A stretch of DNA of 15,441 bases from UHGV virus genome UHGV-0099063; one strand, given 5' to 3'. This DNA comes from a virus. The notes under the pieces were generated by a model. It was given only the letters and a program-made list of their open reading frames with translations, searched no databases and had not been told where the DNA came from. The position numbers and the translations under genes are program-made. Below are positions 1 through 9,407 of this stretch, one piece after another (position 1 is the stretch's first letter; every line of letters starts with the position of its first letter).

Positions 1-160
1 ATACAGTCCATACACCAACAATATCTTTGTATGGTATGTAGCTGACACCTTCCAGGCCATCGTTACCACTTGGTCCAGTGATTAACACAGATGCTATAGC
101 AATAGCCCCGCCACTTATCGCCGCTATTACGCTATTTCGTAGTGCCGGTGACATTGCCAT
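1..160 (-). CDS. SAR endolysin (lysozyme, RrrD/R21-like), partial; C-terminus lies beyond the window start
   Basis: Minus-strand translation from ATG at 160-158 reads [53 protein letters not shown], matching the N-terminal signal-anchor-release region of lambdoid SAR lysozymes as recalled from E. coli RrrD. Overlaps the 3' end of the holin gene, as is usual in lysis cassettes. Confidence 0.85.
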
Positions 161-335
161 TCAATCTGTCCTCGCGCTCTTTGCGCTTGTAGTACCAGTT
201 GATGCCAAATGTGCCGACAGTACAAAGAATACCAATGATGACAGCCCAGTCATTCAGGGAGAGAATGCCACCCATCGCAGTCAGTCCTCCGAAGCTGTAA
301 CTGAACCATTCTCTGATTTTGTCCATACGGTACAT
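132..335 (-). CDS. class II holin (pinholin, S21-like) with dual-start motif
   Basis: 67 aa ORF with two predicted TM segments (Gly-rich [17 protein letters not shown], then [20 protein letters not shown]) and a charged C-terminus. N-terminus M-Y-R-M has two in-frame ATGs (335-333 and 326-324) separated by a basic residue, like the holin/antiholin dual start of lambda S and phage 21 S. Sits immediately upstream of the SAR endolysin. Confidence 0.8.
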
Positions 336-740
336 GCTCTACCCCTTCATTGAGGGGATTTGCTCTATTTAATTAGGAATAAGGTCGATTACTGATAGAA
401 CAAATCCAGGCTACTGTGTTTAGTAATCAGATTTGTTCGTGACCGATATGCACGGGCAAAACGGCAGGAGGTTGTTAGCGCAACCTCTTGCCACCCGCTT
501 TCACGAAGGTCATGTGTAGAAGGCCGCAGCGTAACTATCACTGATGAATTCAGGATAGCCAGTGGCTACGGCTCAGTTTGGGTTGTGCTGTTGCTGGGCG
601 GCGATGACGCCTGTACGCATTTGGTGATCCGGTTCTGCTTCCGGTATTCGCTTAATTCAGCACAACGGAAAGAGCACTGGCTAACCAGGCGCGCCGACTC
701 TTCACGATTATCGACTCAATGCTCTTACCTGTTGTGCAAA

Positions 741-782
741 TAAAAAAAGCCACCGTTGCAACTTAAGAGTCACTAACGGCAG
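741..782 (-). terminator. rho-independent terminator downstream of HNH endonuclease 1
   Basis: On the minus strand, hairpin GCUGCCGUU...AACGGUGGC (9 bp stem with two G-U pairs) followed by a run of seven U (plus 741-747 is AAAAAAA). Confidence 0.5.
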
Positions 783-791
783 CTTACATCT

Positions 792-1304
792 TTAAACGGT
801 ATGATATTTCATTCTGGCTGCCTCAAAAGCCGCAGCGGCAAGTTCGGCAGTGTCATGGTATCCAAGGTTAATACACTTTCCAGACGCATTAATTCTTGCT
901 CTCCATTTCCCGTACTTAGCATCCCAAGACACGCCACGGTATCCAGATTTATTATTCTTCTGAATTTTCCTGTTTTGCATATTTTCGGAATGAGTGACAA
1001 GACGAAGATTTGATATCCGGTTATCTGTTCTTACCCTGTTGATGTGATCAATAAAACCATCGGGCATGGTGCCATAAACAATCAACCATGCCAGTCTGTG
1101 AGCAGGGCATGCTTTACCATTAATCATAATCATTAAATACCCATCAGAATTTATTGATGAGCATTTCTTGAAAGCAAAACGAGAGTTCCATGTCAAAGTG
1201 GTCCTCTCTCTCCCCTGCCTCCATCTCCAGTGAAAGTCGCCTGATGATGGATTGTAATCAACAACAGAAAGCACCATTTCTGGCGTTAATTTTATTTCTT
1301 TCAT
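792..1304 (-). CDS. HNH endonuclease (HNH_3 motif plus AP2-type DNA-binding domain), homing-endonuclease-like
   Basis: 170 aa ORF with FIDHINRVRTDNRISNLRLVTHSEN (HNH_3-type catalytic motif) followed by GYRGVSWDAKYGKWRARI...LGYHDTAELAAAAFEAAR (AP2-like). Start 1304-1302 with AAGG 8 nt upstream. Lies between the candidate tR' and the lysis genes. Confidence 0.85.
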   Translation of the reverse strand: MKEIKLTPEMVLSVVDYNPSSGDFHWRWRQGRERTTLTWNSRFAFKKCSSINSDGYLMIMINGKACPAHRLAWLIVYGTMPDGFIDHINRVRTDNRISNLRLVTHSENMQNRKIQKNNKSGYRGVSWDAKYGKWRARINASGKCINLGYHDTAELAAAAFEAARMKYHTV

Positions 1305-1424
1305 CGCTTTACCTTAGGGATAGAGCCTGTTCGCGTAGATATGACAGCCAAGAGCGGAGCGATGTTTCCACCACCATATCTCAGGCCCATATCACTAAGA
1401 CTCTTGTTTTGATTGCACGCGAAT

Positions 1425-1449
1425 GCAAAAAAGCCCACAGGAGGTGGGC
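1425..1449 (-). terminator. rho-independent terminator just downstream of Q (candidate tR')
   Basis: Stem GCCCAC/GTGGGC (plus 1433-1438 and 1444-1449) with 5-nt loop; on the minus strand it is followed by UUUUUU (plus 1427-1432 is AAAAAA). Confidence 0.6.
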
Positions 1450-1491
1450 TTGTGATGGTTGCTGAATGCAAAAGCAGCAGCATATGTGAAT

Positions 1492-1522
1492 ATTATGGCT
1501 AAATGGCTAATTGCATGTCAAG
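1492..1522 (-). promoter_or_regulatory. candidate late promoter pR' overlapping the 3' end of Q
   Basis: Minus strand reads TTGACA (plus 1517-1522), 18-bp spacer, CATAAT (plus 1492-1497). Position directly after Q and about 40-60 nt upstream of the terminator matches the conserved Q-pR'-tR' arrangement of lambdoid phages. Confidence 0.4.
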
Positions 1523-2017
1523 ACTTTTAACAGCAACATGCTTAACTTTCTCAACACGTTTACGCATTTTGAAAGCATTTTGCATTGGTTGGTACAAAAC
1601 AAATAATGACGCTTTCAGGATATCGTCAATTTCGTTTCTACAGGTTGCCAGTGAAGGTTTTCTCCATCCCTCGCCACCACGCCCACACATCTTGCGTGGC
1701 TTTGCAGTCGCGTGATAGTAGGATGCAATTGCTCGCTTAGATGAACCATGAGCGTAGTAGCTGAGGAGGATGCCAAAGGCTTTCTTGTCAATGTACATGA
1801 CGGAATCGACGACCTGAGAAATCAACATTCCATCATCATCATTACACATTGGCCTTGTCATAACTCTTCCCAGCTCTACGCTCTCCATGAACTTCGCTAT
1901 TACGCTGCTCATGCGCTTTTCCAGGCGACCTGAATAAACCCATGCGCCCCACAGTTCAAGCCAGCCATTCAGCCAATCGTGCTGTTCTTTGGTGAGGTTT
2001 AGCTCTCTTATGCTCAT
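1499..2017 (-). CDS. Q: late-gene antiterminator Q (Phage_antitermQ family, QuuD-like motif)
   Basis: 172 aa ORF containing LELWGAW, recalled as a Q-family motif; last gene of the coupled nin operon (start overlaps ninH stop) and immediately upstream of the candidate pR'/tR'. Confidence 0.75.
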   Translation of the reverse strand: MSIRELNLTKEQHDWLNGWLELWGAWVYSGRLEKRMSSVIAKFMESVELGRVMTRPMCNDDDGMLISQVVDSVMYIDKKAFGILLSYYAHGSSKRAIASYYHATAKPRKMCGRGGEGWRKPSLATCRNEIDDILKASLFVLYQPMQNAFKMRKRVEKVKHVAVKSLDMQLAI

Positions 2018-2202
2018 CGTCTTCCCTTTTTGCCTGGCGTGACCATCAGGACGCCGTTAACTATTACGTGACGCTCGCCTTTGCTGTCTCGGTTGTACTT
2101 GAGCACTGTTCCTCTTGCGCAGGAAAGCATCCTCGCCACTTCGGTCTGATTGCCTCGTGTCTGGATAAGAAGCTCTGGTATCGTTTGAATTGTGGCGTTC
2201 AT
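2014..2202 (-). CDS. ninH: NinH
   Basis: 62 aa ORF MNATIQTIPELLIQTRGNQTEVARMLSCARGTVLKYNRD..., closely resembling lambda NinH as recalled (TIPDML...GNQTEVARRL.CSRGTVRKY). Start overlaps rusA stop. Confidence 0.8.
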   Translation of the reverse strand: MNATIQTIPELLIQTRGNQTEVARMLSCARGTVLKYNRDSKGERHVIVNGVLMVTPGKKGRR

Positions 2203-2561
2203 ACGCTCTCCAGTTCGGTGATTTTTATTCCAAGCCTTCCGCCTGGTACTTTTACGCCACGAATTACGCGAATGTCATCGAATTGCTCGTCGTCTTCCGC
2301 AAATCCGGCGTGGATAAGGGAGTCGAGTAAACCTTTCAGGATGTTGTCGAGGTCGCGGCGGCGGGAGTCTGGAACGTCTGCGATGACTTTGATACGGAGT
2401 CGTGATTTGGTGAAAATGTCTAACTTGAGTTGGCGAATGATTTGCTGAACGTCTTTTCGGTATTTCTGGCCTTTATCGCTGATGTAGTATTGGCTTCCCC
2501 GTCTTCGCCAGTAGGTGTTCACCGACGGCGGGTAAGGAAGCACAAACTGATATTCGTTCAT
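2199..2561 (-). CDS. rusA: RusA Holliday-junction resolvase
   Basis: 120 aa; LPYPPSVNTYW...DVPDSRRRDLDNILKGLLDSLIHAGF..DDEQ...GGRLGIKITE parallels E. coli RusA as recalled (LPWPPSNNRYY...PDRRRRDLDNLQKA..DALTKAGF..DDAQ...GGRLELTITE). Confidence 0.85.
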   Translation of the reverse strand: MNEYQFVLPYPPSVNTYWRRRGSQYYISDKGQKYRKDVQQIIRQLKLDIFTKSRLRIKVIADVPDSRRRDLDNILKGLLDSLIHAGFAEDDEQFDDIRVIRGVKVPGGRLGIKITELESV

Positions 2562-2848
2562 GGCTTAATCTTCCCCTCCTTCAGCAGTATCGCCTGCGTC
2601 CTGATCACGCCTTCGAGGTGGTAAAGTCTGGCGTCTTTGTTGTCGAGATTATGGGTGCGTCGGTCGATCTCCGCGTGACACGCGCTACAAGCCCATGCGC
2701 CGATCAGGTCGTCAGGTTTCATTCCCGTTCCGCAAATTCCAGCCATCCGGTAATGTGCCAGAACTGTAGTTTCAGGATTCCCATTGCATACGCCGTAAAT
2801 ACGTACCTGGCATTCTCTGCCGCGCGCTTCTTTGCGTAGGTTAGCCAT
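2558..2848 (-). CDS. ybcO: YbcO-like phage nuclease (DUF1364 family)
   Basis: 96 aa; MANLRKEARGRECQVRIYGVCNGNPETTVLAHYRMAGICGTGMKPDDLIGAWACSACHAEIDRRTH closely matches DLP12 YbcO as recalled; start and stop overlap the neighbouring genes. Confidence 0.8.
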   Translation of the reverse strand: MANLRKEARGRECQVRIYGVCNGNPETTVLAHYRMAGICGTGMKPDDLIGAWACSACHAEIDRRTHNLDNKDARLYHLEGVIRTQAILLKEGKIKP

Positions 2849-3053
2849 TTACCTTCCCTCGCAATTGAAGAATTGACTGAAGGTCTTTTTTAATAAATAT
2901 GCGAGTGCGAATTGAGCAGTAGTTTTCCTTCATTCTGGCGTAGTAATAGTCCTTTCTTTGCTTAAGTTTGTTGGCATCCGCTGTCATCCAGTCTTTTACA
3001 GCAAACTTAATTAGCCAGCGGTGGCAGAGATACCATTTCAGGTAATCACTCAT
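2841..3053 (-). CDS. hypothetical nin-region protein, 70 aa
   Basis: ORF translationally coupled on both sides: its ATG (3053-3051) lies inside the last codons of ninF and its stop overlaps the ybcO-like start. No family recognised. Confidence 0.55.
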   Translation of the reverse strand: MSDYLKWYLCHRWLIKFAVKDWMTADANKLKQRKDYYYARMKENYCSIRTRIFIKKDLQSILQLRGKVNG

Positions 3054-3222
3054 CGTCTTCTTCCTCGTACATTGAGCTATTCGGATCGCTCATCAGTTCT
3101 GCGCAGCAATCGGAGCACACGTGAACTTCCAGCACATGCAGCTTCTGACCGCAGTTAGCGCACGTTAAAGCTCGCTCGACGCTTTCTTTCTGGTATTGAA
3201 GGGATTGGGATGGGCTAAGCAT
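3046..3222 (-). CDS. ninF: NinF
   Basis: Not in the ORF track (58 aa). Minus-strand translation from ATG 3222-3220 gives MLSPSQSLQYQKESVERALTCANCGQKLHVLEVHVCSDCCAELMSDPNSSMYEEEDDE, essentially lambda NinF as recalled. Confidence 0.8.
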   Translation of the reverse strand: MLSPSQSLQYQKESVERALTCANCGQKLHVLEVHVCSDCCAELMSDPNSSMYEEEDDE

Positions 3223-3580
3223 TATTGGCGTCCTGCATCATGAGAAAGACAATCATGGCGGCGCGGAGGGGATTTTCATGTATAGCTCGCTTAGATTTAC
3301 AGTAGGCCACACCGCGTGCACCCCACTCGTCTTCATCGAGATTGATAATGCTAATCCTGTATTTTTCAATAATCGGCCATGCGTCTGCTGGGTTTGCGCA
3401 TGGGTTAAAGGAACCGCGCTCAACTTCTACTTCAACTGCGTCTCCGTTTACAATGTCTCCCTCAAATGAGACAAACACCATATCGCCATTCTCACCTTCT
3501 TTGTAATCCGGTGATCCGTTATGAATAGCTTCGAATACCGCCACGTTAATTTCAAAATCACTTAACTGTGAATAATCCAT
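3215..3580 (-). CDS. hypothetical nin-region protein (possibly YbcN-like)
   Basis: ORF in the track starts at a GTG (3622); the likely true start is ATG 3580-3578 (MDYSQLSDFEIN...), preceded by GAGGAA at 8-nt spacing and 2 nt after the ninE stop. C-terminal NPLRAAMIVFLMMQ looks familiar from nin-region proteins but is not firmly assigned. Confidence 0.55.
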   Translation of the reverse strand: MDYSQLSDFEINVAVFEAIHNGSPDYKEGENGDMVFVSFEGDIVNGDAVEVEVERGSFNPCANPADAWPIIEKYRISIINLDEDEWGARGVAYCKSKRAIHENPLRAAMIVFLMMQDANNA

Positions 3581-3582
3581 TG

Positions 3583-3759
3583 TCATTTCCTCGCACGATG
3601 TCTTAGCCACCGGATATCCCACAGGTGAGCCGTGTAATTGAAGGTTTTTACGTCAGATTCTTTTGGGATTGGCTTGCGTTTATTTCTGGAGCGTTTCGTT
3701 GGAAGGTATTTGCAGTTTTCGCAGATGATGTCGGTGATACTTCGTCGCTGTCGTCTCAT
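3583..3759 (-). CDS. ninE: NinE
   Basis: From ATG 3759-3757: [58 protein letters not shown], matching lambda/DLP12 NinE as recalled. Its ATG overlaps the TGA of the upstream HNH ORF. Confidence 0.85.
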
Positions 3760-4358
3760 GCCGCCCTGTCTCCCCATCTTGCTTTCATTGTTTCATTTGC
3801 AAATCGCCAGAATCTTCCTTTGTGATATGAGCTTTCGCCATTACAGCAACGACTAATTGACGAACTATCAAATCCTTCTCTGACAGCATCCATAGCTGCT
3901 TCATAATAAACCTCCTCCCCAGTTTTCATGTCAGTAGAAATAACAGCTTTACTGGCAGGATGATCACCACTAAATTTACCTAGCGATATAGGTATTCTTC
4001 CATTTTGTTTATATCCGTGCTTTGAGTTTTCAGAATGTGATACCCATTCAAGGTTTTCAGCCCTATTGTCATCTCTTTGCCCATTTTTGTGATTAACTAC
4101 CAAGCCATCACAGAACCCTGTACAGAATGCTTTCGCAACTATCCTGTGGGCGCTGTATTTCTTACCGTATACCTTTATTTGAAGATATCCTGTCGACTTG
4201 CACTTGAATGGTTTTACGCTAGTGCCATTAATTATTTTCTTATATGGCCTCTGTCTGGTTGATGTTACTGTAATTTCCCTCGTAATAGACCTGAAATTTC
4301 CTTTATTGCTAACCTGATAAAATGGAATTCCTTCGATATCTACCCAAACCTCAATCAT
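3756..4358 (-). CDS. HNH endonuclease (NUMOD4-like N-terminus plus HNH_3 motif), inserted into the 3' end of ninB
   Basis: 200 aa; N-terminal [20 protein letters not shown] (NUMOD4-like), then [25 protein letters not shown] (HNH_3). GGAGG lies 4 nt upstream of the ATG, inside the last ninB codons. The last nine residues, KARWGDRAA, match the recalled C-terminus of lambda NinB. Confidence 0.8.
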
Positions 4359-4767
4359 AATTCCTCCATTCGCTAAGATGAATTGAGTTCATGGCACAAT
4401 ATGCTTCTATGTAGTCCATTATTTCGGATATTTTTTTTACAGATAGAGTCGCCGTACTCTCTCTGATGTTTATTAGCTCACCTTCTAACCCTGATATAAT
4501 CTCAGGGTGCTGGTTGGTTGCAATCTGCCAACCAGAAACGAATAACCCCTTCCAAAACTCAATATTTCTTGCTTTTCCATGATATGTAGCCTTCTTACTT
4601 ATTTCAGATAGCATCGCGTGAAGGCGTGCATTTTGCCGAATGCTGCGGTTGCGTTCCTGAATGGTTACTACGATTGGTTTGGTTGGGTCTGGAAGAATTT
4701 GCTGGATAGCTTGAATGGCGTTCTGCTGATGGATGGGGCTTCTTAGTTCAAATGTTAGTTTCCTCAT
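4351..4767 (-). CDS. ninB: NinB recombination protein, with its natural C-terminus replaced
   Basis: From ATG 4767-4765: MRKLTFELRSPIHQQNAIQAIQQILPDPTKPIVVTIQERNRS..., near-identical to the recalled lambda NinB N-terminus. Ends ...HLSEW-RNYD-stop rather than the recalled ...[12 protein letters not shown]. Confidence 0.8.
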   Translation of the reverse strand: MRKLTFELRSPIHQQNAIQAIQQILPDPTKPIVVTIQERNRSIRQNARLHAMLSEISKKATYHGKARNIEFWKGLFVSGWQIATNQHPEIISGLEGELINIRESTATLSVKKISEIMDYIEAYCAMNSIHLSEWRNYD

Positions 4768-4930
4768 CACCCTTAATCCTCTCGAAGTTCTTCTCGAAGT
4801 TTTTGGTGTCGAACACTGACCACCGACCATTATGAATGGCGTATGCACAGGTCTTGTTTTCGTCCTGATAAACTACCCTTACCTTGCGATAAAACCGTGG
4901 CTTAATCTCTCTGAATATTTGCTCGCTCAT
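4748..4930 (-). CDS. hypothetical small phage protein, 60 aa
   Basis: ATG 4930-4928 preceded by AAGGAG at 5-nt spacing; MSEQIFREIKPRFYRKVRVVYQDENK... No family recognised. Its 3' end overlaps the ninB start by about 20 nt. Confidence 0.5.
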   Translation of the reverse strand: MSEQIFREIKPRFYRKVRVVYQDENKTCAYAIHNGRWSVFDTKNFEKNFERIKGDEETNI

Positions 4931-4940
4931 GCTCACTCCT

Positions 4941-5156
4941 TCACTTTAAATCCAGACTCCGGATAATTCTGTTGCGCTGAAACTCATTGTTGAGTCTGAA
5001 CAACCGACGAAGAACACGGTCACGCGGATAGCGTCGTGCGGCAGGTGAATGCTCATACAACTCATCAAGCGGCAAACTTGACGATGAACGATACCGATAC
5101 CAACGCGCCAACTCTTCACGAAAATTAGCCCTGACAAGCTCAGCTATCGTACTCAT
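4941..5156 (-). CDS. hypothetical small phage protein, 71 aa, Arg-rich
   Basis: ATG 5156-5154 preceded by AGGAGG at 9-nt spacing; first gene after the terminator that follows HNH endonuclease 3. Confidence 0.55.
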   Translation of the reverse strand: MSTIAELVRANFREELARWYRYRSSSSLPLDELYEHSPAARRYPRDRVLRRLFRLNNEFQRNRIIRSLDLK

Positions 5157-5280
5157 TTCTTAAAACCTCCTAAAACGCATTCTGACGAACTTTTACATCT
5201 CGCCACCCAATTACATGCCTGAGCAATGATTAGGTCGCCACAGGCTTATTTATGTGGCTTAAAATCGATTTTGCTTACAT

Positions 5281-5310
5281 ACAAACAAAAGACCTGCGAT
5301 TACCAGCAGG
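5281..5310 (-). terminator. hairpin terminator directly after HNH endonuclease 3, possibly bidirectional
   Basis: Stem CCTGC/GCAGG (5293-5297 and 5306-5310) with 8-nt loop; U-rich tract follows on the minus strand (plus 5281-5292) and a T-run follows on the plus strand (5318-5325). Confidence 0.45.
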
Positions 5311-5313
5311 CCT

Positions 5314-5925
5314 TTATCTTTTTTTAACACGCTTTCGAGTCCTTTTAGATTTTTCCTTAAGATATTCCGCAAGTTTATCCTCATCATTATTAAATTGAGA
5401 TAAAAGCTCATGCTCGCAATTAAGTGCTTTACTCGCATAAGTTCCATATAGTTTCTTTCTTGCTAGTGCTGCTATGAATGCTGCATCTTCTTTGCTATCG
5501 AAATACCCTAACGATATTGTCTTATTTTTATAACCAACATAAGACTTCCACCTGCCAGTTGTCTTATCCCAAGACACTCCAATCGCACCGGATGTGTTTA
5601 ACCTATTCCCTACAATGTTTCTTGCATTCTGCTCCTCTGTTGCCAGTCTTAGATTTGAAATCCTATTGTCAAGTCTGTTCCCATTTACATGATCAATAAA
5701 CTTAGGAGGCCATTTTTTGTATACATAGAACCAAGCAAGTCTATGCGCATAATACAAAACATTATTTATGCTAATGCATATATAACCACCACTAACACCT
5801 CCAGCAATACTACCTTTTACTCTTACTACTGAATTTGTTTTTAGCCATTTAAATATTCCTGTTTCTGAGTCATATGATAATGTTGACAGAAGCTCATCGT
5901 GATCAATTAGTTTTTTTATTCGCAT
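5314..5925 (-). CDS. HNH endonuclease (HNH_3 plus AP2-type domain), paralogue of the 792-1304 gene
   Basis: 203 aa; AHRLAWFYVYKKWPPKFIDHVNGNRLDNRISNLRLATEEQN (HNH_3) and GVSWDKTTGRWKSYV...LGYFDSKEDAAFIAALAR (AP2-like); collinear with HNH 1. Strongly AT-rich; no clear Shine-Dalgarno before its ATG. Confidence 0.8.
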   Translation of the reverse strand: MRIKKLIDHDELLSTLSYDSETGIFKWLKTNSVVRVKGSIAGGVSGGYICISINNVLYYAHRLAWFYVYKKWPPKFIDHVNGNRLDNRISNLRLATEEQNARNIVGNRLNTSGAIGVSWDKTTGRWKSYVGYKNKTISLGYFDSKEDAAFIAALARKKLYGTYASKALNCEHELLSQFNNDEDKLAEYLKEKSKRTRKRVKKR

Positions 5926-6003
5926 AAAGAATATACTTAATAATATATACAGTAAGAACCATTAGTAACGATAACCCTGCTATCAGCTCAGTGATGTAGA
6001 TGG

Positions 6004-6273
6004 TCATTGCTTCATCTCCCTTTCCATTTCATCAATGTCAACGTCATCAGGAAGATGGGAGCAATACGCCGCTATACCATGATGATTTATCTCATACCCT
6101 TTGAACGTTACCATCTGGCGCGTAATCTCAACTTCGTTCAGGAATCCGTCATCGCATAACTGCCTGGCTATTTTCGATTTGGTCTGGATTATTGGTAGTG
6201 CCTGTTCTTTCAAAGCGCATGATATTTGTGCATCCCATGCCTTTTCGAGAATGGCTAATTGTTTTTTATTCAT
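6004..6273 (-). CDS. hypothetical phage protein, 89 aa, downstream of the helicase
   Basis: ATG 6273-6271 overlaps the helicase stop codon (TGATG); same strand and operon as the replication genes. No family recognised. Confidence 0.6.
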   Translation of the reverse strand: MNKKQLAILEKAWDAQISCALKEQALPIIQTKSKIARQLCDDGFLNEVEITRQMVTFKGYEINHHGIAAYCSHLPDDVDIDEMEREMKQ

Positions 6274-7709
6274 CAGAATCCTCCTTTCTTCTTGGACTGC
6301 GGTTCCTCGCGTTCACGTCGGCGCATTTCAGCAGACTGTTGGTCTGTGTCATAAATAGCGCCATTTGCCTGAATGCAATACACCGTGCCGGTATTGCCAT
6401 GACGATTGAGGCGAAGGATTAGTTCGGTTTCACCAGGAGGAACGCTGTCATCAAAAGCACCTTCACGATGGATCCCCACCCAATAATCGCAATCCTGTTC
6501 AATCTGCCCTGTATCTCGTGAGTCACTTGGTAATGGGCGTTTATTGGTTCGGCTTTCCAGTGCGCGGTTAAGCTGTGTCAGAAGCACAACAACGCAATCA
6601 AGCTCTTTGGCAAGGTTCTTCAGTCCTTTGGTGATCATGCCGTAAGCAAGGTCGTTGCGATCGGCCTTTTCAGCGGTCATTAGTGTCAGGTAATCGACCA
6701 GAATCATGCCAACACATCCTTTTTCTCGCTTGATTCGACGGCTTTCGCTGACGATTTGAGCCAGAGATAATCCCGGCGTGTCGTCGATGTAAAGCAGGTC
6801 GATTTCACTCAAGCGATTGGCTGTTTCGATCGCCCTGTTGAAGTCACCATCGTAATCACCCTGATAGCCGTCATCAGCGTCATTTGTCGCCGGAAGGTAA
6901 AAAATATTCGGGTTAACACCTGACTTCTGTCCTACCAGTTTTTCCAGTATCTGGTCACCGGGCATTTCAAGGCTGAACATCAGAGCGGGCTTTTTCTCAT
7001 GCACTGCGCAGTTGATTGCCATCTGGCTGTATAGCGTCGTTTTCCCCATCTTAGGGCGAGCGCCAATGACAAACAGAGAGCCTTTCACCAGACCTTTCGG
7101 TGACAGCATCCTGTCCAGCGATGGGATCCCTGTGCTCATTCCCCGTTGTTCGCCTGATGGGTCAAATCGCTTCTCAAGGTCGCTAACCCAGTCTTCCATG
7201 ACCTCGCCAAATGAGCGAAGGCCGCGACGCGATCCGGTTTTTGCATGGTCTGTCAGTTGCGTGAAAATCGCCTGAATAGCTTCGTACTTCTGCGTCGCAG
7301 TCATTCCGTTGCGGGAATAGAGCAATTCCGTCGCTTCAGTCATGCGGTTGATGGCGTAGCGTTCCATTGCGGTTTCGCGAACCTGCATTGCATAGGCAAC
7401 GATGTTTGCGGCGCTCGGCGTGTTCTTTGCGATCTCAGCGATATAAGCAAAACCGCCAACAGACGCCGTTAACGATTTACGCTCCAGTTCATCGAAAAGC
7501 GTCAGGCCATCTACTGGCTTTTGCTCCCGGTGCATTCTGGTTATTTCTTCGAAAAGGATTTTGTGTGGTCGGCTGTAAAATGAATCAGGCTTCAGCATCG
7601 CCAGAACTTTCTGGACGCGCTCACTGCTGTCATCATCCAGAAGCAATCCACCAATCACCGCCTGCTCTGCCTCGATGCTATGGGGCGGCGCATAAAAATT
7701 ATCGGTCAT
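6273..7709 (-). CDS. replicative DNA helicase, DnaB family (P22 gene 12-like)
   Basis: N-terminal DnaB-type helical domain (SIEAEQAVIGGLLLDDD), Walker A GARPKMGKTTL, and RecA-like core motifs. Preferred start is ATG 7709-7707 (GAGGGTG upstream), overlapping the end of the O-like gene. Confidence 0.9.
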   Translation of the reverse strand: MTDNFYAPPHSIEAEQAVIGGLLLDDDSSERVQKVLAMLKPDSFYSRPHKILFEEITRMHREQKPVDGLTLFDELERKSLTASVGGFAYIAEIAKNTPSAANIVAYAMQVRETAMERYAINRMTEATELLYSRNGMTATQKYEAIQAIFTQLTDHAKTGSRRGLRSFGEVMEDWVSDLEKRFDPSGEQRGMSTGIPSLDRMLSPKGLVKGSLFVIGARPKMGKTTLYSQMAINCAVHEKKPALMFSLEMPGDQILEKLVGQKSGVNPNIFYLPATNDADDGYQGDYDGDFNRAIETANRLSEIDLLYIDDTPGLSLAQIVSESRRIKREKGCVGMILVDYLTLMTAEKADRNDLAYGMITKGLKNLAKELDCVVVLLTQLNRALESRTNKRPLPSDSRDTGQIEQDCDYWVGIHREGAFDDSVPPGETELILRLNRHGNTGTVYCIQANGAIYDTDQQSAEMRRREREEPQSKKKGGF

Positions 7710-8589
7710 CGTGTTCACCCTCACGAACTTTCAGGTAGGTATTATCGTTAAGCAGGAAATCAAATCCCTTTTTGTGCCAGACGGTTCCTCGCTGATGGTT
7801 TGGGCGCTCTTCGAACATCCATCGGCAATTTTCGCCTACGTATCTCAAATAATTTCTCCAGTCCTGCATCGTGAACCCATGCCCGTCAAGCTGGCGGGTT
7901 ATCACTCCGGCTTTGCGCCAGAACGTTCGGATCTGGTTTTTACGCTTGTCATTCAGTGCGCGGATTCTTGGCGCTTCAGGAAGGATTTCGTGGTAAGCAT
8001 CGACAACATCCTGACAGCTAACGGAAGGTTTTTTCTTGTCAGACTTTTTGTCTGCTGTGGCACTCTCTAATACGTCAGTATTAGAGATATTATTTATATT
8101 ATTGTTTATGGACAACCGTTGGACAACCGTTGGACAATCTCCGCTGAGAGCCTCGCCATTACTGGTGTTTGCGTTGGACAACCGTTGGACAACCGTTGGA
8201 CAATTTTTTGCCTGAAAATCGTCATATTTAACGATTGTAAACAGGCTAAATTTCTTCCCCATCGAGCAAATATTAAGCATCCCTTTCGACTCAAAAGTCC
8301 GTAATAAGCTCCGAACTTTGTTGTCGGGGATGAATGTTTCTCTGACCAGCGACGGGCGTCCAGTTATCATCTGACCGCGATCAACAGTTATCGGCCCGAT
8401 ATCCGTATTGACGACAGTAGATTCGTGATTAGCCTTGAGGATTAAGTGAAGCCAAAGATGTACTGCCTGAGAGTCCTTATAGAGCCTGCTGTCCATAAAC
8501 TGGCGGTGTATATAGGCATACCCCATACTGGATGCCTCCTGATGTTGTACAGGGTTATGCCTGTAATCAGCTAACTTAACGACGCCCAT
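7699..8589 (-). CDS. replication initiation protein (lambda O-like) containing the ori iterons
   Basis: 296 aa ORF immediately upstream of the helicase. Its coding sequence carries two clusters of direct repeats that translate to repeated PTVVQRLS peptides, as the lambda O gene does around ori. Start 8589 (AGGAG upstream) or internal ATG 8526. Confidence 0.8.
   Translation of the reverse strand: MGVVKLADYRHNPVQHQEASSMGYAYIHRQFMDSRLYKDSQAVHLWLHLILKANHESTVVNTDIGPITVDRGQMITGRPSLVRETFIPDNKVRSLLRTFESKGMLNICSMGKKFSLFTIVKYDDFQAKNCPTVVQRLSNANTSNGEALSGDCPTVVQRLSINNNINNISNTDVLESATADKKSDKKKPSVSCQDVVDAYHEILPEAPRIRALNDKRKNQIRTFWRKAGVITRQLDGHGFTMQDWRNYLRYVGENCRWMFEERPNHQRGTVWHKKGFDFLLNDNTYLKVREGEHDDR
8110..8203. 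repeat. origin of replication: 11-bp iterons GGACAACCGTT in two clusters, next to an AT-rich tract
   Basis: Direct repeats at 8110-8120 and 8121-8131 with a partial copy at 8132-8137, then 8176-8186 and 8187-8197 with a partial copy at 8198-8203. An AT-rich stretch at about 8060-8105 lies downstream in the direction of O transcription. Confidence 0.7.
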
Positions 8590-8737
8590 GTTTCACTCCT
8601 GCTTTGGCTAGTCTGTAAACACCAACAAGGCGCTCTGCGAACGCCCTGTTATTTGCTGCGGCTACCACTAATCCCTCAGGTGAATCAGGGTGTCGAATCT
8701 CTTCTTTTTCCTGGTATTTCTTACGACGTTTTGTCAT
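8576..8737 (-). CDS. hypothetical small basic protein, 53 aa, between cII and the O-like gene
   Basis: ATG 8737-8735 preceded by AGGAG at 6-nt spacing; its stop overlaps the O-like start. No family recognised. Confidence 0.45.
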   Translation of the reverse strand: MTKRRKKYQEKEEIRHPDSPEGLVVAAANNRAFAERLVGVYRLAKAGVKHGRR

Positions 8738-8771
8738 AATTACTCCTGTGGATTGATCCAGTCTTTCTACA

Positions 8772-9050
8772 TCAGGCCTCAAAACTGTTGCCGCAGTCTT
8801 GAGGCTTTTCTTTTGTCAGCACCATGGCTACTTTCTTTGCCAGCTCCGCTAATTCCTCGTCTTCAACACCCCACTCCAGCACAGCCAGAAGCATGGCCAT
8901 CTTTGGGATAAAGCTGTCTTTCCATCGCGAAATTTGCGATTCATTGATCCCTAATGCATCAGCAACCTTTCGCTGACCACGTACAGCAATTCGATTTAGG
9001 ATGTTGCTTGTAATTGCATTCGCTTTCTTGCGAGTACTTGTAAGTTGCAT
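8772..9050 (-). CDS. cII: CII-like transcriptional activator
   Basis: From ATG 9050-9048: ...GINESQISRWKDSFIPKMAMLLAVLEWGVEDEELAELAKKVAMVLT, matching the recalled lambda CII core (SQISRWKRDWIPKFSMLLAVLEWGV). AAGGAA 9 nt upstream. The upstream extension in the ORF track would run through nutR. Confidence 0.8.
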   Translation of the reverse strand: MQLTSTRKKANAITSNILNRIAVRGQRKVADALGINESQISRWKDSFIPKMAMLLAVLEWGVEDEELAELAKKVAMVLTKEKPQDCGNSFEA

Positions 9051-9108
9051 ATGTAAGTATTTCCTTAACAAATAAGAAGTTATGCGCACCAGCTGATGCG
9101 CGTTGTAT

Positions 9109-9152
9109 TCCCGCATTTCGGCGGGAATGAGGACCATGACTGTTAAAGAGCG
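9109..9152 (-). promoter_or_regulatory. nutR: boxA plus boxB hairpin
   Basis: Minus strand reads CGCTCTTTAACA (boxA, plus 9141-9152), then 14 nt, then hairpin TCCCGCCGAAATGCGGGA (boxB, plus 9109-9126); located between the cro stop and the cII start. The boxB is identical to the one in nutL. Confidence 0.65.
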
Positions 9153-9159
9153 GTGTTAC

Positions 9160-9384
9160 TTATGCTGCCTGATTCGGTTTTGGAAACAGGTGTGGCAAAT
9201 CGGGGCGAATTTCGTAAGCCTTGATCTGCCCTCCAGTGGCGTTAACGATGGCGGTAACTTTCTCTGGAGAGACCAACCCGCCTTTCAGCCATTTGTGTAC
9301 TGCTGGCTGCGTTACACCACACTTGTCGGCAAGGCGCTTTTGGCTACCGACAATTTTCAAGGCTCGTTGAATTACTAAATTCAT
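9160..9384 (-). CDS. cro: Cro-like repressor (YdaS/Cro-type HTH)
   Basis: From ATG 9384-9382 (GAGG 8 nt upstream): HTH segment QKRLADKCGVTQPAVHKWLKGG. Divergent from cI across the operator region and followed by nutR. Confidence 0.8.
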   Translation of the reverse strand: MNLVIQRALKIVGSQKRLADKCGVTQPAVHKWLKGGLVSPEKVTAIVNATGGQIKAYEIRPDLPHLFPKPNQAA

Positions 9385-9407
9385 GAGCATACCTCTTGTG
9401 GTCATTA

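Follow-up and report, generated by a model that had tools for sequence, protein, structure and literature searches.

Our results indicate that UHGV virus genome UHGV-0099063, a stretch of viral DNA of 15,441 nucleotides referred to here as the window, probably carries three independently acquired, free-standing homing endonuclease genes of the HNH type, each forming part of a separate cassette located at a sequence conserved in the pR or pR' operon. Positions 1-9405 of the window comprise, on the minus strand, an early-right operon of lambdoid type and, after it, the late control region. The three genes, HNH1 (792..1304; 170 amino acids, aa), HNH2 (3756..4358; 200 aa), and HNH3 (5314..5925; 203 aa), are intact open reading frames (ORFs) on the same strand, all co-oriented with the pR/pR' operons. 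This interpretation is based on the domains of the proteins, exact junctions, presence/absence polymorphism, occurrence in several backgrounds, sporadic spread, and mostly intact copies. An initial annotation of the same DNA had placed the ORFs at these positions, at the junctions of Q/tR' with lysis, of ninB with ninE, and of replication with nin, and the ORF list and gene order agree with it on both counts.

All three proteins match the Pfam profile HNH_3 above its curated cut-off of 24.8 bits (HNH1, 65.3 bits, E = 3.8e-18; HNH3, 57.8 bits, E = 8.1e-16; HNH2, 45.0 bits, E = 8.2e-12). An AP2 domain lies C-terminal to the HNH core in HNH1 (35.1 bits, E = 1.6e-8; cut-off 33.3) and in HNH3, where it is marginal in score yet collinear with that of HNH1. 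The two proteins are 40% identical over 161 aa (E = 5e-33), as expected from the proposal that they are collinear HNH_3-AP2 paralogs, and the AP2 parts of both align to the AP2 repeats of plant WRI1 (PDB 7WQ5). HNH2 is, as had been recognized, a different protein: it matches NUMOD4 (51.2 bits, E = 1.5e-13; cut-off 23.4), has a weak C-terminal match to an I-HmuI NUMOD-like profile (19.3 bits; cut-off 27), and resembles HNH1 and HNH3 only in the HNH core. Its phmmer alignment with I-HmuI (PDB 1U3E; E = 4.7e-14, residues 55-186) extends past this core, and NUMOD4, HNH core, and C-terminal DNA-binding region are collinear with those of I-HmuI. The profile searches named in the initial annotation as a check (HNH_3, AP2, and NUMOD4) thus detected every domain, the AP2 of HNH3 falling just under the cut-off. 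The predicted catalytic residues align at D86-H87...N108 in HNH1, D78-H79...N100 in HNH3, and N89-H90...N111 in HNH2; none of the three proteins lacks the catalytic His or the metal-binding Asn. PHROG 99 ("HNH endonuclease") was matched by HNH1 with E = 1.8e-72, the values for HNH1 and HNH3 both being about 1e-72, and PADLOC recognized HNH2 as "homing endonuclease" (E = 2.3e-26). Generic "HEase" models were the sole PADLOC matches, none of its defense-system component models being matched, and no NCBIfam model matched the three nucleases or the small neighboring ORFs. By these profiles, HNH1, HNH2, and HNH3 are HNH_3 nucleases with predicted DNA-binding modules of the AP2 or NUMOD4 type.

HNH3 lies between the replication genes (P and an 89-aa ORF) and DUF7301/ninB. 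Comparison of empty and occupied alleles defines a cassette of 665 bp (5311..5975) that consists of a 50-nt AT-rich leader devoid of a Shine-Dalgarno sequence, the ORF, and 3 nt. Insert-free alleles in phage HK629 (L001), strain 317 (L002), Xuzhou21 (L006), and O157 strain 3384 (L007) read ATGACCATCTACATCACTGAGCT(A/T)(A/G)TAACAGG^CCTGCTGGTAATCGCAGGCCTTTTTATTTGGGGGAGAG, and lambda is also an empty site. The occupied sites (the window, L003, and L008-L011) have the 665 bp at one point, ATGACCATCTACATCACTGAGCTAATAACAGG^CCTGCTGGTAATCGCAGGCC, with a junction that is ambiguous within an imperfect 8-bp repeat (ATAGCAGG / ATAAAAGG versus ATAACAGG in the target). Suggestive sequence differences were seen next to junctions, such as an A-to-G change 5 bp upstream of that of HNH3; the G is present in six of the six upstream junctions read, five of them directly (the window, L003, and L008-L010) and that of L011 via near-identity up to an adjacent IS3. 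The target sequence is the lambda ren-ninB intergenic region (40,568-40,646). The NinA start codon has been placed 30 bp upstream of tR2 and its stop codon 16 bp downstream (Li et al. 2015, PMC4824070), so that the target of HNH3 is ninA with tR2 inside it. In the window, the 5' part of ninA (5976..6007, with the ATG at 6007 overlapping the stop codon of the upstream ORF) matches lambda from 40568 onward with single-base differences, and its frame continues into the cassette to 5903 (ending in MTIYITELIAGLSLLMVLTVYIIKYILYANKKTN and a stop), overlapping the start of HNH3 out of frame. The tR2 hairpin and its T-rich tail (5278..5315) follow HNH3 and were recognized by terminator scan, fold, and identity to lambda; the hairpin itself (5288-5315; folding free energy, dG, -15.8; z, -4.8) has one C-to-T change in its 3' arm. 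Two candidate interpretations were discarded here: the hairpin is not part of the cassette, since insert-free sites carry the same hairpin, and the small ORF after the replication genes is not a new or unannotated gene, as it is lambda ninA containing tR2.

The gene upstream of the HNH3 cassette can be any of four that are unrelated to one another (P/DnaB, the 89-aa ORF, a toprim primase, or a replicative helicase), and the gene downstream of it also differs between loci. Among 5,426 complete Escherichia coli genomes, it is present in 126 (2.3%), in 138 places; the best place in every record covers at least 80% of the 665 bp. The uninterrupted 70-bp ninA/tR2 site occurs in 1,885 of the same genomes, with up to six matching places per genome. 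We also observed that ninA/tR2 (window 5976-6007 and 5278-5315; lambda, L063, 369-447) is kept almost base for base behind at least five unrelated genes, namely ren, P/DnaB, the 89-aa ORF, toprim primase, and replicative helicase, and that the ninA ATG overlaps the stop codons of the upstream genes while the ninA stop overlaps the start of the next gene. In E. coli VR50 (L011, 21394-22714), an IS3-family element sits at the upstream edge of the HNH3 cassette with the equivalent of window bases 5971-5975 on both sides, which suggests a 5-bp target duplication.

HNH1, which is 99.4% identical to gp62 of HK629, lies between Q/pR'/terminator and the holin gene. Relative to empty sites of the same Q type, its cassette comprises 704 bp (788..1491). 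In two empty alleles with the same Q (L004 and L005), the predicted late promoter pR' (1492..1521; TTGACA-18-CATAAT, overlapping the end and stop codon of Q) is followed by 6 bp, TAGAGG or TAGAAG, then by GTAAGCTGCC, and then by a hairpin with a 17-bp stem and T7; the 704 bp stand in place of the 6 bp in the window, HK629, strain 317, and VR50. A second Q/promoter context, available in full (L026) and empty (L003) form, narrows the junction to GCATA^AGCTGCCG versus GCATA^TGCTGCTGC...GATGTA^AGCTGCCG and yields a minimal unit of about 785-1483. pR' is present in empty and occupied alleles and is the best promoter-like site in positions 1-6400, with 11 of 12 matches. The cassette starts with a near-copy of the initial transcribed sequence that it displaces (TATGCTGCTG for TAAGCTGCCG), followed by its own intrinsic terminator (1431..1451, between pR' and HNH1), a 125-nt spacer, and HNH1; the resident tR' comes next (740..785; hairpin 747-785 and T-run 740-746). 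The cassette terminator, identified by terminator scan and fold, has an 8-bp GC-rich stem and T6 (whole leader, dG -21.5, z -3.9) and was found only with HNH1, every contig with this terminator also having the cassette. The tR' hairpin (dG, -20.2 kcal/mol; z, -3.85) directly follows pR' in insert-free alleles and thus belongs to the phage backbone, not to the HNH1 insert. The hairpin terminators that the initial annotation had noticed after HNH1 and HNH3 are therefore present, but they are the resident tR' and tR2, which insert-free relatives have as well. By these comparisons, the HNH1 insertion coincides approximately with +1 of the predicted late transcript and precedes the resident tR'.

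The left junction of HNH1 is identical in 38 of 38 IMG/VR contigs that hold the cassette terminator, and the right junction with the whole unit is identical in the 35 contigs that reach the far end, three loci ending inside the cassette. The cassette is found behind three Q alleles (97-100%, 89.6%, and 85%), with identical junctions wherever these are reached. It is present in 34 of the 5,426 E. coli genomes (0.6%), and the uninterrupted pR'-tR' site of this Q type is present in 357. In a further locus (L052, 10090-10428), a 112-aa ORF with HNH_3 and AP2 lies between a Q of another Pfam family (PF03589, Antiterm) and the holin gene, so the Q-to-lysis interval hosts this type of gene in another Q context too.

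HNH2 lies between ninB and ninE, with an ATGA start/stop overlap at each end. The initial annotation had the position right, but HNH2 does not appear to be a simple intergenic insert: it is fused to the tail of ninB and always accompanied by part of that gene. Its last ~10 codons (3756..3790, ..KARWGDRAA and stop) correspond, in DNA sequence, to the end of a lambda-type ninB and match the ninB ends of L003 and L050. The ninB upstream of it (4351..4767; 138 aa; Pfam NinB, E = 4.4e-40) is chimeric by protein and DNA comparisons, residues 1-42 being lambda-type and near-identical to L050 and the remainder belonging to an AT-rich, divergent second NinB type. Divergent-type ninB codons 43-138 and HNH2 form one AT-rich, coinherited block (about 3790..4641; GC content 0.39), whose left breakpoint is sharp at ninB codon 43 in comparison with L050 and whose right breakpoint lies inside the lambda-type ninB tail. 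In E. coli, the block is all or none: it is whole in 77 of the 5,426 genomes (1.4%), and among the other matches listed, a spread sample of 40 rows, genomes lacking the full block match the ninB 5' end only. A NinB ORF is directly upstream of HNH2 in 10 of the 10 places listed (138 aa in eight, 131 aa in L054, and 137 aa in L058), and the gene after HNH2 varies between phages (ninE, dam, ninD, or a phosphoadenosine phosphosulfate reductase gene). Carriers include Shiga toxin 2 (Stx2)-converting phage 86, phi419, TL-2011a, dozens of Stx2a phages, and prophages of O157:H7, O121, and O103 strains; the exact protein is indexed in 2,092 blocks of an assembly collection. Species-representative genomes gave a single unrelated match to HNH2, in a metagenome-assembled genome, and the evidence for linkage comes from E. 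coli.

Insert-free alleles with base-exact junctions were thus found for all three genes, and the situation named beforehand in the initial annotation as contradicting mobility, identical placement in all relatives, was not encountered. The alleles are exact for HNH1 and HNH3, and the polymorphism of HNH2 is a block replacement within ninB. Each gene also recurs in different backgrounds (four upstream genes for HNH3, three Q alleles for HNH1, and four downstream genes for HNH2). Full-length copies are intact in 38 of 39 cases for HNH1, 4 of 4 for HNH2, and 7 of 8 for HNH3. A decayed HNH1 copy with a 1-bp deletion is found in L032 and an HNH3 copy with a 1-bp insertion in L022; in H329 and H355, the annotation divides HNH3 into an AP2 piece and an HNH piece, or the gene is truncated, in H355 at 565 bp. 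Synonymous and nonsynonymous variants across the three genes number 13:9, 10:4, and 6:6, an excess of synonymous changes in two of the three.

HNH1, HNH2, and HNH3 have no predicted promoter of their own, and we propose that they ride on phage transcription. Lytic transcription from pR would serve HNH2 and HNH3, and HNH1 would be expressed solely upon Q-mediated read-through of the terminator that lies ahead of it in its own cassette; with these as the sources of expression, none of the three would be expressed in the lysogen. Homing would take place where a phage with a cassette shares a cell with a lambdoid phage or prophage that lacks it: the nuclease would nick or cut the cassette-free allele near the insertion point, and recombinational repair would copy the cassette and some flanking sequence into the cut allele. 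HNH domains at the named junctions, together with insert-free alleles, make the view of selfish mobile genes that may also cut competing phages, put forward in the initial annotation, a reasonable one.

Several observations weigh against this interpretation. The AP2 match of HNH3 (32.6 bits, E = 1e-7) is 0.7 bits below the cut-off of 33.3, and in HNH2 an Asn replaces Asp74, a metal ligand of I-HmuI (D74-H75...N96). The assignment of pR' rests on consensus matching, which leaves its promoter function a prediction, and the HK629 record (L001 2518-2523 and 2611-2633) has a "putative late promoter pR'" 3' of the terminator and just 5' of the HNH gene. Our reading, with pR' apparently at the Q stop codon and the HK629 terminator as part of the HNH1 cassette, conflicts with that annotation. 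TA(A/T)GCT is a putative sigma-dependent pause element needed for Q loading, by its consensus. The ninA/tR2 flanks of HNH3 (about 33 and 40 bp) could allow movement by homologous recombination in which the nuclease takes no part, and HNH2 was never seen apart from its ninB segment, which fits a functional partnership. Cleavage, target specificity, homing, timing of expression, and the functions of promoter, pause element, and terminators are all predictions drawn from DNA and protein sequences.

An explanation that we consider unlikely is that the cassettes are ordinary mosaic modules shuffled by general homologous or illegitimate recombination and that the nucleases are inactive passengers or relics. 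Lambdoid nin regions are highly mosaic, many of the junctions are gene boundaries in the compared loci, and the conserved ninA/tR2 and tR' could act as short recombination linkers; moreover, cassette copies are 95-100% identical, so that recent spread by any route is possible, and some copies have decayed. However, the insertion points of HNH3 and HNH1 lie inside a conserved element and not at its edges, and no base difference at them was seen between contexts, whether behind unrelated upstream genes or behind the three Q alleles. The intact catalytic motifs and site-specific DNA-binding modules, the proportion of intact copies given above, and the synonymous excess in two of the three genes also speak against passive relics. 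It is for HNH3 that passive shuffling through conserved flanks is hardest to set aside.

The linkage of HNH2 to its ninB segment is compatible with coconversion of a resistant ninB target variant and also with a functional NinB-HNH pair. In the latter case, which we judge improbable, HNH2 would be a nonselfish partner of the divergent NinB, the two forming a recombination mediator and nuclease pair like the Orf-HNH fusions of phages of Gram-positive bacteria. The same ninB segment with the ATGA overlap is upstream in 77 of the 77 block genomes and in all 10 places listed, and fusions of Orf-family proteins to HNH domains have been described in other phages and provide a precedent (PMC4118853). 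Such strict linkage is, however, equally expected if the target of HNH2 is in ninB, the linked ninB variant then being the resistant allele. HNH2 furthermore has the architecture of I-HmuI (NUMOD4, HNH, and C-terminal region) and not the zinc-finger HNH of DUF968 proteins, the leftover lambda-type ninB tail in HNH2 indicates insertion or recombination into ninB, and related second-type NinB alleles work with no HNH neighbor (L001, L002, and L011); these are the reasons for which we rate the partnership below coconversion. We reject two further roles that HNH proteins hold in other phages (cited in PMC12315714), as a packaging-associated HNH of the HK97 gp74 type or as prophage defense nucleases protecting the lysogen; both are very improbable from position, expected expression, and the PADLOC result. 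Packaging-associated HNH genes are adjacent to terminase or portal genes in cos phages, but none of the three genes is near a terminase, all being in the early-right/Q region. The closest backbone, the VR50 prophage, is P22-like, and no HNH gene accompanies its terminase, which is located some 4 kb past the lysis genes. Against defense, the transcription units of the three genes (the pR operon, or the region behind a terminator 3' of pR') are not expected to be active in the lysogen, and the PADLOC defense-system models were unmatched; against either role, they are sporadic, occurring in 0.6-2.3% of genomes. For the genes as a group, mobile homing endonuclease genes remain the reading that we prefer.

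The initial annotation had considered the density of such genes unusual. Among HNH1-bearing viral contigs with at least 5.5 kb upstream (n = 15), 10 have one HNH_3 gene, four have two, and one has three, the third being frameshifted; among HNH2-bearing places, 4 of 10 have at least two HNH_3 genes at the locus. About a third of the sampled related early regions thus have at least two such genes and a few have three, in two small samples picked for carrying HNH1 or HNH2, which makes these conditional estimates. Multiple homing-type genes are hence common in the sampled lambdoid early regions; three intact nuclease genes appear to be the upper tail of the distribution, and the density seems only mildly unusual. 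The baseline that had been assumed, a single HNH gene near the terminase, concerns a different class, the packaging-associated HNH of cos phages, and not AP2 or NUMOD4 types. The triple combination of HNH1, HNH2, and HNH3 was found in none of the 5,426 complete E. coli genomes and in none of the phage records found, and homologs of HNH1 were found in 3,768 phage records at 6,252 places, often several per genome. E. coli AMSCJX03 (L003) also has three HNH_3 genes in the early-right operon, at the rusA/ybcO junction, inside ninF, and at the P/ninB junction, and VR50 has HNH1 and HNH3 in the early-right operon and a third HNH gene between Rad52 and ssb in the early-left operon. In L052, one of three HNH_3 genes is beyond the repressor gene, outside the early-right operon. 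Three of the 10 HNH2-bearing places carry further genes of homing-endonuclease type, a T5orf172 gene in L052 and L061 and a LAGLIDADG-containing primase gene in L054.

Some of these loci provided further observations. The T5orf172/MUG113 protein (200 aa; L052, 2021-2623; L061, 775-1377) is encoded between DUF2740 and the replication initiator, and its gene may be a further mobile nuclease gene of this type of operon; in L061, a NUMOD4+HNH_3 gene additionally lies between initiator and primase. The toprim primase of L054 (2406-5312) has 968 aa and a weak LAGLIDADG_3 match, and it is 342 aa longer than its 626-aa relatives in L052, L053, L059, and L061; the extra segment is probably an intein. 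In L003, ninF is annotated in two pieces (5052-5761), interrupted by an HNH_3 gene (5113-5619), and a DnaB-like helicase gene is annotated as two partial pieces ~1 kb apart (7886-8916).

The preferred reading can be taken further, in a form that we put forward only tentatively and consider rather doubtful: the cassettes would target shared transcription-control elements, the HNH1 leader would have evolved, and rivals would be cut. The targets may be tR2 inside ninA, and the pR' transcript start with tR'. The HNH1 cassette may swap the Q-loading sequence for a working copy (TATGCT for TAAGCT) and add a terminator, by which HNH1 would be strictly Q-dependent and late-gene control would stay unbroken. 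Cassette-free rivals, including lambda at tR2, may then be cut at coinfection or coinduction. If true, the several lambdoid prophages that share an E. coli cell would be subject to marker exclusion among themselves.

In the operon around the cassettes, the first genes are cro, cII, and O, in this order, followed by P (DnaB-like; 6273-7724) and the 89-aa ORF (6004-6273); a DUF7301 gene (4941-5156) lies between HNH3 and ninB; and ninE, ninX, ninF, a 70-aa ORF, ybcO, rusA, and ninH follow HNH2 and precede Q (1499-2017), the holin gene (132-335) coming after HNH1, all on the minus strand. The GC contents of the three nuclease ORFs (0.41, 0.395, and 0.35) are lower than that of the whole window (0.448) and of most of the backbone, in agreement with the description of the three as AT-rich; their co-orientation with the host operons likewise holds, and their neighbors range from 0.42 (89-aa ORF) and 0.455 (Q) up to 0.51-0.52 (P; ninH to ybcO). 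Parts of HK629, HK022, Sf6, P22-like phages, and many E. coli prophages match the backbone with 97-98% identity, and 80% coverage of window positions 1-7800 was reached by no phage record and by no place in the 5,426 complete E. coli genomes. Rfam and tRNA scans of the window gave no match; the cassettes have no known RNA family and are not intron-borne. Two noncoding segments differ from relatives: the 116 bp after tR2 (5171-5286), where relatives usually have TATTTGGGGGAGAG and then the next gene, and the 128 bp between tR' and holin (588-715), which are unlike all or most relatives. Both are further mosaic junctions.

HNH genes have been reported to be sporadic and apparently mobile in lambdoid phages (PMC12315714), and literature searches on lambdoid HNH/homing genes and on HK629 yielded no work devoted to the genes described here. 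Their families and architecture and the apparent mobility of lambdoid HNH genes are already known, and the cassettes are in GenBank/RefSeq as HNH or NUMOD4 proteins. We did not find described the base-level mapping, which places HNH3 in ninA/tR2 and HNH1, with its own leader and terminator, at the start of the pR' transcript and joins HNH2 to a ninB tail. Overall, this is a tidy but ordinary case of mobile genes colonizing phage genomes and otherwise a routine annotation result. It nevertheless provides three concrete target-site predictions for uncharacterized HNH endonucleases, and the predicted target of HNH3 is present in lambda (ninA/tR2, 40,568-40,640) and in roughly one in three complete E. 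coli genomes. It also shows how nuclease genes can be inserted into control regions (the foot of a terminator, the start of the late transcript, or the last codons of a gene) while leaving the sequence of the surrounding elements undisturbed. Should the enzymes prove active, recombination among the many lambdoid and Stx prophages with these sites would be biased, which bears on the mosaic origin of Stx phages.

Among known systems, the same cassettes, 97-100% identical and at the same sites, are those of HK629 gp62, Stx2 phages (86, phi419, TL-2011a, and Stx2_16002), and prophages of enterohemorrhagic E. coli, although many of the Stx phages have dam between HNH2 and ninE. HNH1 and HNH3 are of the same type as the free-standing HNH_3+AP2 endonucleases of phages (PHROG 99; T7 gp3.8; the multiple HNH genes of T5-like phages), but their identity to almost all of these is below 60%, the same HNH1 gene being found only in HK629, and they differ in residing in temperate lambdoid phages and in being inserted at transcription control elements. 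HNH2 resembles the intron-encoded I-HmuI of Bacillus phage SPO1 in its NUMOD4 and HNH_3 domains, in the aligned core and C-terminal region, and in the general-base His and metal-binding Asn; it differs in being free-standing and not intron-borne, in its location in a temperate coliphage operon, in a C terminus that is a captured ninB tail, and in the Asn for Asp74. The Seg and Mob families of T4 are free-standing homing endonucleases of virulent phages for which homing, with marker exclusion and coconversion of flanks, has been shown by experiment, and the Seg family consists of GIY-YIG nucleases. The three genes share with them the intergenic or gene-end location, the lack of their own promoter, the sporadic occurrence among close relatives, and a divergent tract linked to the nuclease gene (the ninB segment of HNH2; the A-to-G change 5 bp from the HNH3 junction). 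They differ in that Seg is another nuclease family, that the T4-type hosts are virulent, and that homing of HNH1, HNH2, and HNH3 is inferred.

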